Of a stretch of 64,000 bases of DNA, positions 12,735 through 62,165 are shown piece after piece. This stretch comes from Octopus vulgaris (Eukaryota). The DNA lies in NCBI GenBank assembly GCA_951406725.2, contig OX597819.1, forward strand, positions 6,386,001 through 6,450,000. The letters are read 5' to 3'. The number at the start of each line of letters is the position of its first letter. Positions within the stretch are counted from its first letter, which is position 1. Both the position numbers and the translations under genes were made by a program. Under the pieces are notes generated by a model that did not search any database, was not told the origin of the DNA, and saw only the letters and a list, made by a program, of their open reading frames with translations.

Positions 12735-12937
12735 TATGGAAATGTACTTGCATAGCAAGTGATTTGATCTGAGATCGTGTGCTGGAACGAAAACAATTGC
12801 AGCGTGGAAGGTGTTTGTAAGCCATTTAAGAAACATACAAAAGCCGTTCGATTCACTTCAATATTTAAGTTTAATTTGTCAAAATATTTTCGTCGCTAAA
12901 ATCCGCGACCTGTTCACTGACAAAAATCCGTGCTGCA
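12735..12937 (-). mobile_element. Short non-coding element with a 13-bp flanking duplication, carrying a hammerhead-like motif (12875-12924)
   Basis: tctagttcttgtt at 12722-12734 and 12938-12950; same family as 44380-44783; minus strand tttgtca GTGAACA G GTCGC..GCGAC GAA AATATT T tgacaaa. Confidence 0.7.
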
Positions 12938-13596
12938 TCTAGTTCTTGTTGTTATGTCATTATGTGCATTCAGAACAATAAAGCACCTCGGTCAAAACGA
13001 GTGAAGATTCAACATCATAAGTTCATGTGCGTCTATGTTTACGGTACTTGTATAAACACAGAGACGCAAATATAAACACTCACGCAGGTACACAAGCATG
13101 CATGCATAAAGTACAACATTTAGCCGCGCGAACAAAAATAATGCAGTACTTAATACGAGTGCAGAGTGAAATATTATGTATTATGATATTTATTCGACGC
13201 TTAGTCTGCGTTTCGCGGTTCCGGTTGTCGGGAGACTGAGGAAAACAATCAAGAAAGGCATAGATGTGAATCAAACAGAACAAGATTTGAATAAATGAAA
13301 GAATATGTTACTCTACTCTCTGTCATTTTCTCTCAATTTGTTTCTCTCTATATGCATGCATATACATACACACACCCACACACATACACATACACAGAGG
13401 TACTTTAATTTCATTTCTCGACTTTTCCTGTCTTTCCCTATAGCCAATAGACATCACTAATTTATTTAAGTCTGCTTAGAGACATAGCCAACCACCAGTT
13501 GCACCTCATTTCAACATACTCGCCGTAATATACCTCTCCCTTCCTCCCTCTGGTTTATCTCTTATACCTCTATTCACTCATTACTGACTCACCCAC

Positions 13597-13977
13597 GTGG
13601 AGGCGCAATGGCCCAGTGGTCAGGGTAGCGGACTCGCGGTCGTAGGATCGCGGTTTCGATTCCCAGACCGGGCATTGTGAGTGTTTATTGAGCGAAAACA
13701 CCTAAAGCTTCACAAGGCTCCTGCAGGGGGTGGTGGTGATCCCTGCTGTACTCTTTCACCACAACTTTCTCTCACTCTTACTTCCTGTTTCTGTTGTACC
13801 TGTATTTCAAAGGACCGGCCTTGTCACTCTCTGTATCACGCTGAATCTCCTCGAGAACTACGTTAAGGGTACACGTGTCTGTGGAGTGCTCAGCCACTTG
13901 CACGTTAATTCCACGAGCAAGCTGTTCCGTTGATCGTATCAGCTGGGACCCTCATCGTCGTAACCGTCGGAGTGCTC
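13597..13977 (+). mobile_element. tRNA-derived SINE, family C
   Basis: GGAGGCGCAATGGCCCAGTGGT (A box)...GGTTTCGATTCCC (B box); copies at 33732 and 35349; diverged TSD actgactcacccacg/actaactcaccctcg. Confidence 0.9.
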
Positions 13978-14189
13978 CTATATATAACTAACTCACCCTC
14001 GTTCCCTTCACCTTGCATTTTTTCTTGTTGTTTCATTGCCTTTCACTCCTCCCTCGGTAAGCCACATACATCCCCCCTCACCCTGCGACTTACTCCTTTT
14101 CTTTCTCATCTCTCATTCAACCTTTAAATCTCATGCTTTGCCAAATCTTCCTCCTGATAAAGGAAACCGGTCTTATGGTAATATCTCTG

Positions 14190-57545: not shown

Positions 57546-59341
57546 ATATATATATATATATATATATATATATATATATATATATATATATATATATATA
57601 TATATATATATATATATATATACATATATATACATAGCTACACGTGTGTTTTGCTATGTTCTTATATACTTATATACTATTAAGTGGGAGACACTAGACA
57701 TCAATGCCAAGTTGGAAATACAGGGGGTAAAATCGGTGAAAGACAGGGATAATGAAGTCTACATAGACGTAGACGCCATATTTGGATTGAAATTTAAGTA
57801 AACATGGTATTGTTCTCAGTGGTGGGAAGGATGTAGGTAAGAAGTGAGAAGCTTGACTCTAAGAAAGAAACATGATGTGTAGTTTGCTTGTGGATAACAG
57901 GTGTTGTGTGTCGTCTAGGCTGGAGAGAAATACTCGGATGTCTTAGAAGAAGTAGAATTGGCCAGAAACTGGTGGATCTGTTTTTTCGTCATCATAGCGA
58001 AAGCTTTCAGACGGTTAGAGCATGGAAAGGTCACGAAAATCCCTGTGCGTGTTTATGAGTGCACATACGCTTGTTGGTGTATGTGCATGTATGTACGTGC
58101 GATTGTATGTGTATACATTCTGAGAAGACAGTATTAGCGAACAGTCGAAGTGTTTAAACATAGAGACACAAAAAATATATATGAATATACATGTATTATG
58201 TAACTATATATGTATGAATGTACGTATGAACGTATGTATATGTGTGTATGCATGTATATATATGTATATCTATATATATATATATATATATATATATATA
58301 TATATATATATAGACATATATAGACATATATATAGAGAGAGACATATACATATATATGCGCGCGCTTGTGTGTGTGTATACACACACATGCACGCAATAT
58401 CTTTTACATACACACACAGAGGCATAAATCTATTCAGAACTATGTGCGTTAAACAAGTATTACCATTATATTTACAGCAATATTTGAAAATTTGTGTTTG
58501 TCTAAAAGAAAATTAATTCGCACAAGAATATTTTTTTGAATATGAAAATATTCTACTGTATCAAAGATGTACCGTGTATTCTTATAATTATATCAATATA
58601 TATAAAAAAAATGATTACTCGAAACTTTTATGTCATGAGCGCTTTCATCGTATTTTTCAACCTGTAACTTACATTTACATACCATTTCGAATAAAAACCT
58701 GCAAATAAATTTATCGCTAAACACGTGCGCTCACACACGCAAACACATACACACAAACGCGCAAACACGCACATAAAGCATGCACACACGCACACACATA
58801 TATATCAAGCAACATATCAAAGAAACCCATATTTGCACGTAATTCCTGTTTCTATAAAACATAAATATTCTTGCTAAATGAAACACGCACATCTACATAT
58901 ACAGACACACCTTACATATATACACTTAAACATACATACGTAAACACACGATTTGGATTCTTAGACATTTACAAAATTACATGCATAATCACATGCATAC
59001 CGAAATGCAGATATTCATTATACAAACGCATACATAAAAGATACACATAAAAGTTCTTGTACTAAAAAAATAAATCAATCAAATCGATTTTCATGCAATG
59101 AAACTTCAGAATGTTACCTAACTATCAACTTTCTGTGTTTATATGATTCACTTACCTCATCTCTGTATCATTAATTGTTAAAAGGAAGTTATCCACTTTT
59201 CTTTCTGAGTCAGGATAAATATAAAATACAAATGCTCAGATTTACAAATAAAAGATGCACATGCATACTGACATATACATGCAGGGAGATAGACATCTGA
59301 GGGATGTACACAGACAAACGCTAACAGGTACATATATATAT

Positions 59342-59760
59342 AGGCGCAGGAGTGGGTGTGTGGTAAGTAGCTTACTAACCAGCCACATGGTTCCGGGTTC
59401 AGTCCCACTGCGTGGCATCTTGGCCAAGTGTCTTCTGCCAAAGCCCCGAGCCGACCAATACCTTGTGAGTGGATTTGGTAGACGGAAACTGAAAGAAGCC
59501 TGTCGTATATATGTATATATATATATATATATATATATATATATATATATATATATGTCTGTGTGTCTGTGTTTGTCTCGCTAGCATTGCTTGACAACCG
59601 ATGCTGGTGTGTTTACGTCCCCGTCAGTTCGGCAAAAAGAGACCGATAGAATAAGTACTGGGCTTACAAAGAATAAGTCCCAGGGTTGATTTGCTCGACT
59701 AAAGGCGGTGCACCAGCATGGCCACAGTCAAATGACTGAAACAAGTAAAAGAGTAAAAGA
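59342..59760 (+). mobile_element. SINE family B
   Basis: Full match to family B. Confidence 0.9.
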
Positions 59761-60953
59761 TATATATATATATATATAAGCCCATAATGCTCCGTGAACA
59801 AATGCATACACTACGCACACAATTATGTTTGACATAGCCATATGTGCGGATGCACCTACGAAAGACACATTCGAGCAGACTAAGTTACACAAAGCAAAAC
59901 TTCTATAGTGATTCAGAGGTTTGTGGTTCTCAAACAGGCGGTTCGTTCTGTTCATGAGCAAAACACTTCATGTTTCGTTGTTGCTAAAGTCCATTGAATT
60001 GCAAATAGGTAAATATATGACAAACTGACTTCTCGTTCAGTGTGAGGAGGGTGTTGGCCTGCCTGCTTGCCTTATCAACAGCAGATGGCTTAGCTGACCT
60101 AAACTTTGAAGTCACTGTCAACAGCCTTCTTGTATAAGAATAATAAATACATACATATATACATACACACATGTATATGCGTCTACTTGTTAAACTTATT
60201 TTGCCTTCGATAATATGTCTTGCAAACAACTTGCACATGCAAGTGCTACCAGTTAAAAGCTCCGTATACCGGAAGCTAGCAAGTGTATGGGGTCATCAGG
60301 AGAGAATGCGCGCCGTTTCGGGGCCTACCTCTCGACGGCATCAATGCGCACCGGCCCCCCTCACTGATATGAGGCCCCGCTTGCTAGATCAGCTGGATAT
60401 GAAGAACTCACTATACTTCTAGCCATCGCTCATCATAGCAATATTAATACCTATATAAATATTCAATCCTGAATATATCTATCTATCTATCTATCTATCT
60501 GTCTATCTATCTATCTATCTATCTATCTATCTATCTATCTATATATATATATATATATATATATAAATATATATACATACATACATACATACATACATAT
60601 ATATATATGTATAATCGGAAAATGGAGAAAGCTTTTGATCAACAAAAAAAACCACATGACATAACATTTCTATGACACAGAGATGTTAAGTCATGTTTTG
60701 TATTAAAAAATAATCAACAGATGTGGTCCAATTTGTTTCTGGATCAAAAGTTTTTTCCATTTTCTTGATTATTCAAATTTGATAGTGCGCCTGCATACCC
60801 ATGCCGAGGGACAGCACAAGTAATTGATACCGATAATAAAAACGGATACTTTTTATCCCGTAGTTGGTTACTACAACCGCTAACTCTGCTTACCTATATA
60901 TATATATATATATATATATATATATATATATATATATATATATATATATATAT

Positions 60954-62165
60954 AATTAATTAATTAATAAGGGTGAGAGAATTAGATACTAATTTAATAG
61001 TATGTCCATTCAACACCAAGTGGCCCAGTGCCTCGAGAAACCTGGATTATTATAATATTTTATAATATATTATAATATTATTTTATACAAAAATAAATAT
61101 AAGAGAATGGTCACTATGTGGTTCATTCTAGCACTAGAAAATCCAAAAGGTTTCAACCACAAAAATACATGTTTCACATGAAAGTCAGTACGATTGTTAG
61201 CTCACACGAACAGGGCGAATAAAAGATAACAAAAATACAGATTATTTTGGGACAATTGTTTCGCTATTACTGAATTAAATGTAATTTTACTTACAAGCCA
61301 AAACTATCTAGATGAAATCCACTCAATCACACGCCAGATTTTACCATAACGATAAATACACGTGTGGTTCAATTGATTACATCCGACGTTATAATTCAAG
61401 GAGCTACAAGTGGGTTTTTTGTAAGTAAAATTACATTTAATTCATTAATAGCGAAACAATTGTCCCAAAATAATCTGTATTTTTGTTATTTCTTATTTGC
61501 CCTGTTCGTGTGAGCTAACAATCGTACTGACTTTCATGTGAAACATGTATTTTTGTAGTTGAAACCTTTTGGATTTTCTAGTGCTAGAATGAGCCACATA
61601 GTGACCATTCTCTTATATTTATTTTTGTATAAAATAATATTATAATATATTATAAAATATTATAATAATCCAGGTTTCTCGAGGCACTGGGCCATTTGGT
61701 GTTGAATGGACATACTATTAAATTAGTATCTAATTCTCTCACCCTTATTAATTAATTATAATTATGCTACATTTATTTCTAAATGTAGTATTTGTTTCCG
61801 TGAAAGTTTGGCGCGCTGTTAGTAGGGGCATTTGAATTATAACGTCGGATGTAATCAATTGAACCACACGTGTATTTATCGTTATGGTAAAATCTGGCGT
61901 GTGATTGAGTGGATTTCATCCAGATAGTTTTGGCTGAGGAGCTACAAGTGGGTTTTTTGTAAGTAAAATTACATTTAATTCATTAATAGCGAAACAATTG
62001 TCCCAAAATAATCTGTATTTTTGTTATCTTTTATTTGCCCTGTTCGTGTGAGCTAACAATCGTACTGACTTTCATGTGAAACATGTATTTTTATGGTTGA
62101 AACCTTTTGGATGTTCTAGTGCTAGAATGAGTCACATAGTGACCATTCTCTTATATTTATTTTTA
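60954..62165 (+). mobile_element. Inverted-plus-tandem 538-bp repeat with a canonical hammerhead
   Basis: gagctacaagtggg at 61401 and 61939; 60954-61398 is an inverted, internally deleted copy; (TA)n on both flanks. Confidence 0.85.
61921..62015 (+). ncRNA. Type I hammerhead ribozyme, canonical core
   Basis: cagatagttttgg CTGAGGA GCTA [42 nt] TAGC GAA ACAATTGT C ccaaaataatctg. Confidence 0.85.

Follow-up and report, generated by a model that had tools for sequence, protein, structure and literature searches.

Hammerhead-bearing repeats of Octopus vulgaris: ends of coding Penelope-like elements and tandem retrozymes that they probably mobilise

Hammerhead folds and repeat families in the window

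We analysed a 64,000-nucleotide (nt) stretch of the Octopus vulgaris genome (contig OX597819.1, positions 6,386,001 to 6,450,000; hereafter the window), which is 36% GC and has abundant simple repeats. An earlier note on it had described about eight unrelated repeat families with hammerhead ribozymes and read them as non-autonomous elements moved by Penelope-like elements (PLEs). We labelled the families by the start of their cited hammerheads: A (23982/24344), B (61921), C (12875/44528), D (47381/47716), E (14915), F (42459), G (53059) and H (54745), with I for the window's own Penelope repeat. Hits in the genome contigs (2.80 Gb, 227 contigs) were fetched with flanks and given L-numbers. The features of the window are collected in the table below, in which pLTR stands for pseudo-long terminal repeat, RT for reverse transcriptase, ORF for open reading frame and LINE for long interspersed nuclear element.

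Hammerhead-bearing repeats and related features of the window (positions count from its first letter; clade names are probable)
Family	Feature	Position	Strand	Details
C	5'-truncated 3' pLTR of coding Neptune/Nematis-like PLE	12734-12940	-	13-nt target duplication
C	hammerhead	12878-12922	-	G3-C8, stem III AAUAUU
E	last ~70 nt of Hydra-like PLE pLTR	14915-14986	+	between (TA)n tracts
E	hammerhead	14915-14954	+	C3-G8 with U4C, stem III ACUCAGAGU (odd length)
	LINE-type element	17931-21284		endonuclease-like frames and 699-aa RT ORF, RVT_1 E 2e-30
A	two head-to-tail 362-nt ORF-less units	23750-24491	-	end in (TA)30
A	hammerheads	23982-24023, 24344-24385	-	U3-A8, stem III ACGCGU
F	3' end of old coding PLE	42069-42545	+	decayed GIY-YIG end, hammerhead ~100 nt later
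F	hammerhead	42459-42494	+	U3-A8, stem III AGCGCU
C	older copies, inverted	44364-44784		inside longer repeat; intact - fold, damaged + fold from 44528
C	hammerhead	44452-44497	-	G3-C8, stem III AAUAUU, intact
D	350-nt unit, inverted-plus-direct copy	47233-47927		beside (TA)n
D	hammerhead	47381-47425	-	U3-A8, stem III ACUGCAGU
D	hammerhead	47716-47760	+	U3-A8, stem III ACUGCAGU, G12 lost
G	3' part of long pLTR of Hydra-like PLE	52797-53415	-	
G	hammerhead	53059-53185	-	C3-G8 with U4C, stem III ACAGCUGU, 100-nt stem II
H	3' part of ~2.9-kb pLTR of young coding PLE	53770-54826	+	ends in (TA)n
H	hammerhead	54745-54785	+	U3-A8, stem III ACCGGU, U-U closes stem II
I	5'-truncated coding PLE	54885-57489	-	RT to GIY-YIG ORF 55565-57016
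I	3' pLTR; inverted 5' arm	54885-55339; 57038-57489		
I	hammerhead-like folds, weaker	55004-55047 (-), 57327-57370 (+)		A9C form
B	535-nt unit, inverted arm and two direct copies	60957-62163	+	between (TA)n tracts
B	hammerhead	61928-62008	+	canonical C3-G8, stem III ACAAUUGU, intact

A type I hammerhead fold was present at every cited coordinate, with the core N3-U-G-A-N-N8-A, GAAA and UH, three helices and an open stem I. Using a descriptor that allowed any Watson-Crick 3-8 pair and 30 local dinucleotide shuffles as the chance control, we obtained 3 strict matches in the window against a mean of 0.27 in the shuffles; when a palindromic stem III was also demanded, there were 3 against 0, and a relaxed palindromic descriptor gave 5 against 0.03. 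The fetched loci, which were picked for these families, yielded 354 matches in 1.14 Mb against 1, 1 and 2 in three shuffles. The motif is thus far more frequent than in shuffled sequence; an equal frequency was one of the conditions that the earlier note had named as refuting its reading. Some window copies are damaged: besides the 47716 copy without G12, the plus-strand fold at 44528 lacks its 3' stem I strand, the 42459 fold has a stem I mismatch and a B copy near 61400 lacks its 5' core.

As had been proposed, positions 3 and 8 co-vary across families, with U3-A8 in A, D, F and H, C3-G8 in B, E and G, and G3-C8 in C. The cores also deviate elsewhere, by U4C in E, G and some D and by A9C in I. 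U4C, which is absent from the earlier description, is a fixed change in both E and G, being present in 23 of 25 copies of E and in 35 of 36 matches with stem III ACAGCUGU for G; D subfamilies have it too. Rfam models did not recognise these folds: hammerhead families were missing at E<=1 from the window and at E<=0.001 from five loci. The scans gave nothing but microsatellite noise and, in a flank beyond the retrozyme unit, a weak 5S rRNA-like match (L466:1098-1202) whose 36 bits fall short of the gathering score.

The families comprise hundreds to thousands of copies. Exact patterns counted 154 copies of A, 213 of B, 615 of D, 1203 of C (a 28-mer) and 105 of one E variant, with 0 for the reversed controls, and DNA searches gave 131 to 2910 first-look candidates. 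The flanks of fetched loci (for example L053, L079, L120, L169, L230, L331 and L403) held at least 12 further hammerhead types, many with a palindromic or G-U-palindromic stem III.

Ends of coding Penelope-like elements

Judged by sequence, C, F, G, H and the window's Penelope repeat I, and E by homology, are 3' pLTRs of 5'-truncated coding PLEs. An RT followed by a C-terminal GIY-YIG endonuclease lies upstream of the hammerhead on the same strand: both domains were found in H and I, the endonuclease end in C and the RT end with the endonuclease in G; F shows the arrangement too, and E only through a sister form, E'. The complete architecture, with a pLTR at both ends, an inverted 5'-truncated copy and a tail at one end, was seen in H (L212/L219), F (L148), E' (L319) and the window copy of I. 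In the translations of H, I and C, RT and GIY-YIG are joined by a CX2-5CxxC linker, which suggests that these families, and F by its similarity to H, are Neptune/Nematis-like, two clades that are not separated here. E' and G have a CxCX5C linker before GIY-YIG and insert into (TA)n, which points to the Hydra clade, defined by this linker (PMC8557442). These clade labels are motif-based. GIY-YIG matches in long open frames, many of 781 aa, are present in the genome.

Family H provides the fullest example. In its full copy (L212/L219), an inverted arm and a hammerhead-bearing pLTR are followed by an upstream ORF, then by an RT-GIY-YIG ORF (736 aa in L213; RVT_1 E 6e-8) and finally by a 3' pLTR of about 2.9 kb, which stops just behind the hammerhead. 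The upstream ORF is about 435 aa long (L212:4392-7410; L191). In both copies that span the site, it ends in a run of T and a stop overlapping the RT frame (+1), a possible programmed frameshift in an endonuclease-bearing (EN+) PLE. The coding link recurred in 14 of 20 loci of I; for F, whose hammerhead follows a GIY-YIG end by about 100 nt, in the window as elsewhere, an endonuclease-coding upstream region was common to 11 of 25 loci, and in L148 the RT comes after the hammerhead. In G, a single locus (L295) carries endonuclease and hammerhead 1.8 kb apart on one strand.

We had taken C and E for short non-autonomous elements, a reading that was dropped after unbiased pattern samples showed upstream coding links. 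Of 30 unbiased C copies, 11 continue into a long upstream region, and 3 have an endonuclease end, 49-51% identical to that of I, at most 1.5 kb away on the same strand. The two families have similar stems II but different cores, with C3-G8 in I and G3-C8 in C. Target duplications of 12-15 nt flank C at 6 of 25 loci. For E, the sister form E', with canonical U4, has an endonuclease 1.4 kb ahead of its hammerhead in 10 of 20 loci, and 3 of 30 U4C copies carry an upstream region homologous to that of E' at 72-84%; the rest stop just before the ribozyme. Points of 5' truncation or inversion cluster just upstream of the ribozyme in both families (E, 27 of 30, L503-L532; C, 19 of 30, L325-L354), in E often at a short CTAG palindrome.

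Family C also occurs in two unusual arrangements. A repeat of more than 2 kb (window 44364-45851; L063, L080, L083) encloses an inverted C pair and ends near 45850 in a hairpin and CTAG, which we take to be a Helitron-like signature; the pair was apparently captured and amplified. In L297, five slightly differing C ends stand head to tail with (TA)n spacers of unequal length, as if by serial insertion or template jumping. We also considered C as a circular-unit retrozyme and sought its circular junction; both of the 2 matches fell in one (TA)n-spaced cluster, and therefore this possibility was rejected.

Two further families were noticed. One PLE family (L479-L502), with frames of up to 781 aa, has a U3-A8 hammerhead with stem III ACAUGU behind the endonuclease in about half of 30 loci. 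Another, J (window 62658-63990, 52556-52796 and 53418-53698), with 4254 candidates, has a (TA)n end and inverted arms; in the window six 3' pieces of about 200 nt are stacked, each with its own (TA)n, and no convincing hammerhead was seen.

Taken together, the coding families leave mostly 5'-truncated 3' ends, which resemble short ribozyme elements in a 64-kb window. The association with PLEs that had been suspected is borne out by these coding links. The description of all families as non-autonomous holds for only three of the eight, A, B and D; four were traced into RT/GIY-YIG frames and a fifth by upstream homology.

Retrozyme families and their mobilisation

By their organisation, A, B and D are non-LTR retrozymes, that is, ORF-less head-to-tail units of 362, 535 and 350 nt. 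The tandem and inverted-plus-tandem forms first reported in the window are real, A being head to tail and D and B having inverted and direct copies. Arrays reach nine or more units, although D has mostly one or two. We checked the flanks of 60 A, 60 B and 55 D loci (175 in total, +-1.5 kb, overlapping ones included) and found no ORF, no contiguous coding parent and no flank common to independent places. A PLE protein match lay near the unit at 2 of 60 loci in A, 4 of 60 in B and 6 of 55 in D, none of them common to independent places; in the two D places nearest a match, the unit has inserted into the ORF of another PLE. Fragments of PLEs close to B (L055) and D (L421, L432, L417) were considered as parents and rejected, being neighbours or interrupted targets. 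Copies of A, B and N, a subfamily related to A (below), are young, at 98-100% identity.

The ends of these insertions carry a recurring pattern. For the end counts, duplicate loci and arrays running off the fetched stretch were dropped, which left 10 A, 34 B and 45 D loci; 25 D loci derived from a query across the inversion junction. An inverted arm was present in 8 of 10 A, 25 of 34 B and 34 of 45 D loci, and among these inverted loci one short and one long end were paired in 8 of 8, 20 of 25 and 25 of 34, as counted by eye from the end lists. The two arms of an insertion stop at different, fixed positions. Counted from the cleavage site, which lies ahead of them, these are +175-178 and +235-238 for A, about +160-200 and +290-296 for B, and about +163-174 and +209-230 for D. 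(TA)4 lay within 12 nt of 42 of 47 A, 55 of 86 B and 26 of 98 D ends, against a background of 3.9% in the window and 6.6% in the outer flanks. Multi-unit arrays sit within single insertions that have the inverted arm and fixed ends. Targeting of (TA)n, which the earlier note had seen around most copies, is thus real, although the copies at 12875, 44528 and 42459 lie outside (TA)n. In PLEs, the "tail" has been tied to two internal start sites of reverse transcription (PMC11167929); tails as published are 30-40 nt, whereas those of the retrozymes here are longer, at 45-110 nt. By analogy, the inverted arm and two-end tail are the best evidence that PLE proteins likely move A, B and D.

We therefore consider it very probable that the window holds the ends of at least six coding PLE families together with three ORF-less tandem retrozyme families, that their type I hammerheads likely cleave as dimers and that PLE RT/GIY-YIG proteins likely copy the retrozymes into (TA)n. 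What is observed directly in the DNA is the folds, family structure, coding links, closed tandem units, inverted arms, two fixed 3' ends and (TA)n junctions. In the mechanism that we propose, tandem copies would be transcribed by read-through, and two adjacent hammerheads would pair their palindromic stems III and cleave to give unit-length RNA, which a host ligase may circularise. A PLE protein would bind this RNA, nick AT-rich DNA and begin reverse transcription internally, at either of two sites that lie 165-290 nt behind the point of cleavage. Head-to-tail arrays would come from copying round a circle or along a multimer; the inverted arm, with the other end, would form when the other strand is primed from the alternative site.

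Several points weigh against this interpretation. We infer the steps of cleavage, circle formation and transcription, and cores with U4C, A9C or a weak stem II may cleave poorly; U4C reduces activity in vitro (PMC3088659). Eight of nine Xenopus retrozyme dimers failed to cleave in vitro (10.64898/2026.07.22.740005), and cleavage by an anole PLE required protein and was dispensable for insertion (PMC11167929). No PLE pLTR with A, B or D sequence, and thus no driver PLE for these families, was found in 30 GIY-YIG loci, mostly of one family, or in the traced families. Of the D ends, no more than about one in four touches (TA)n, and the end counts rest on the reduced locus set (A 10/60, B 34/60, D 45/55). 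Among sequencing runs, none recorded as RNA was listed as containing the family. Family A appeared in four runs of assembled contigs (three guessed to be RNA), in two as a closed 392-nt contig, the unit plus an overlap; because circle and tandem, and RNA and DNA, are indistinguishable there, we do not count this as evidence.

In the strongest alternative, A, B and D would, like the other five of the eight families, be nothing but truncated pLTRs of coding PLEs, and the tandem arrays would have arisen later by DNA duplication, as minisatellites do. Five of the eight did prove to be pLTRs, for C and E the first 25-locus sample had hidden the coding link, and a 2026 preprint derives retrozymes from pLTRs that expand by unequal crossover (10.64898/2026.07.22.740005). 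However, the A, B and D units close on themselves without leftover flank in the 175 loci, a single insertion, with its inverted arm and fixed ends, can contain a whole multi-unit array, and the clan to which A and D belong (below) retains a 350-362-nt unit and covarying structure at about 64% column identity, which argues for long independent propagation through RNA. We regard this alternative as improbable. Movement of the retrozymes by a LINE, such as the L2/CR1-like element at 19185-21284 with its 699-aa RT ORF, is very improbable: some A and D copies lie in or beside LINE-like sequence and PMC7229834 leaves LINEs open as drivers, but the inverted arm, two alternative 3' ends and (TA)n make up the published PLE pattern (PMC8557442, Fig. 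2 legend; PMC11167929), and the same arrangement is found here in the coding families E, G and H.

A (23982) and D (47381) are homologous on sequence comparison, so that the families are not all unrelated as first thought, and they belong to one diverged clan with the subfamilies K, M, N and others, which a profile built from A, D and flank copies recovered; B stands outside. Unit periods are 361 nt in the young N and 353 nt in K. We aligned 16 representatives, one per cluster (64% mean column identity). Common to them are a stem I of 6 bp, an internal UAC/U loop and a CAA-rich loop II, with conserved hairpins in about 110 nt downstream. Both sides changed in 22 of 27 pairs, 88% of cells were paired and 0 of 500 shuffles reached this, a test that is inflated by relatedness; the structure came from the same alignment, and the slide control is hence lenient. 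The 3-8 pair is kept in 16 of 16 representatives (C-G 9, U-A 4, U-G 3), and U-G is a plausible path between C-G and U-A. That the downstream domain recruits PLE protein is a guess.

The palindromic character of stem III stood up well. In a search that did not demand it, 553 of 600 matches in 1.59 Mb were palindromic, a figure weighted by the queried families; by our own count, about 38 of 69 stem contexts were palindromic against 1 of 39 shuffled matches. Computed energies of isolated monomer stem III hairpins are unfavourable (+2.1 to +6.0 kcal/mol), and homodimers reach -4.8 to -11.2 kcal/mol in 10 of 11 cases, with C at only -0.2. The palindrome excess, unstable monomers and stable homodimers together make selection for self-pairing well supported, and such stems would suit dimers; the stem III of E, ACUCAGAGU, has an odd length and is missing from the list of the earlier note. 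Within the clan, stem III reads ACGCGU, ACUGCAGU, ACCGCGGU, ACUAUAGU, ACAUAUGU, ACUAGU or ACCAUGGU.

A restriction of dimers to like partners by these palindromes agrees with simple thermodynamics, since same-length heteropairs are weak (computed best, -2.2 kcal/mol). In its extreme form, every family would be a non-autonomous ribozyme element with palindromes selected as barcodes that block cross-family dimers, and the differences between palindromes even within the clan fit this. However, C, F, G, H and, by homology, E have coding links, and palindromes are reused in unrelated stem contexts (ACAUAUGU three times; ACGCGU, AGCGCU, ACAGCUGU, ACAAUUGU and ACAUGU twice each), so a "kin barcode" is unsupported. 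Furthermore, only 16-64 palindromes are possible, and drift under a self-pairing constraint yields the same picture. Because the neighbour in a tandem transcript is already of the same family and palindromes are reused, nothing shows selection for exclusivity, and we give the barcode explanation very little credence. A broader proposal for the clan seems doubtful to us, if less so: A, D, K, M and N would be an old, still-active radiation in which the 110-nt domain recruits PLE RT and sets the two internal starts, while the palindromes and the 3-8 pair (C-G, U-G, U-A; G-C in a coding family) are rewritten so that co-resident ribozyme elements dimerise and are processed exclusively with their own kind. 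If true, nature would have supplied a set of orthogonal dimer ribozymes, and the mobilisation of animal retrozymes could be approached directly.

Known systems and implications

Earlier publications cover the palindromic stem III, action as dimers, the U3-A8 pair and PLE-driven retrozymes. Dimeric PLE hammerheads were reportedly also treated by Lunse et al. in 2017 (as cited in PMC6765202), who may already report some of the core variants. Cervera and de la Pena 2020 (PMC7229834) described non-LTR retrozymes and their circles, with PLEs as candidate drivers and mussel repeats of about 350-390 bp. Families A, B and D resemble these metazoan elements in their ORF-less tandem units of 350-535 nt with one type I hammerhead each and in the co-resident PLEs, and the A/D clan resembles them in its 6-bp stem I, UAC/U internal loop and CAA-rich loop II. 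Unlike them, the clan spans many subfamilies, varies among C-G, U-G and U-A at 3-8 and has a conserved downstream domain; here PLE-type inverted arms and two-end tails were measured, and the elements are known from DNA. The same overall model and PLE co-occurrence appear in Li, Clavereau and Pollet 2026 (bioRxiv 10.64898/2026.07.22.740005), mainly in vertebrates and from distribution and pLTR homology, whereas our case is built on insertion anatomy, with no homologous pLTR for A, B or D.

For PLE hammerheads, Cervera and de la Pena 2014 (PMC4209133) reported many families per genome, a palindromic helix III, dimers and U3-A8. The octopus families agree in the hammerhead within the pLTR, the many unrelated families, the mostly solo truncated copies, the opposite-strand pairs, the short palindromic helix III and U3-A8, and family C in an extra base before stem II with G10.1-C11.1. 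They differ in stems III of 6-9 nt that are not minimal, in some pLTRs of 1.4-2.9 kb, and in the G3-C8 of C (1203 exact copies), the fixed U4C of E and G and the A9C of I. An engineered C3G/G8C hammerhead is partly active, and internal initiation and a protein-assisted ribozyme have been described (PMC11167929). The linkers and (TA)n insertion of E' and G are like those of the Hydra clade, and the CX2-5CxxC linker before GIY-YIG in H, I and C is like that of Neptune/Nematis (Craig et al. 2021, PMC8557442); H is unlike the EN+ PLEs of that study in its extra upstream ORF overlapping the RT frame. The literature searched, with Repbase, Dfam and Lunse 2017 outside it, yielded no description of these families, no natural G3-C8 core at high copy number and no tail signature in retrozymes. 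A term search of the PMC4209133 supplements, one file excepted, gave no octopus or G3-C8 match, and the supplements of PMC8557442 may list octopus PLEs.

The enzyme that moves animal retrozymes has so far been argued from co-occurrence and homology. In the octopus, the young A, B and N retain unusually clear, PLE-specific insertion footprints, in each of which two start sites are mapped, and the same genome has PLEs whose frames are long and open. The question is thus open to a direct test in the in vitro system already available for PLEs. Standard descriptors and Rfam miss the core variants that occur here in nature (G3-C8, fixed U4C, U3-G8 and A9C), and ribozyme counts in such genomes are therefore likely underestimates.

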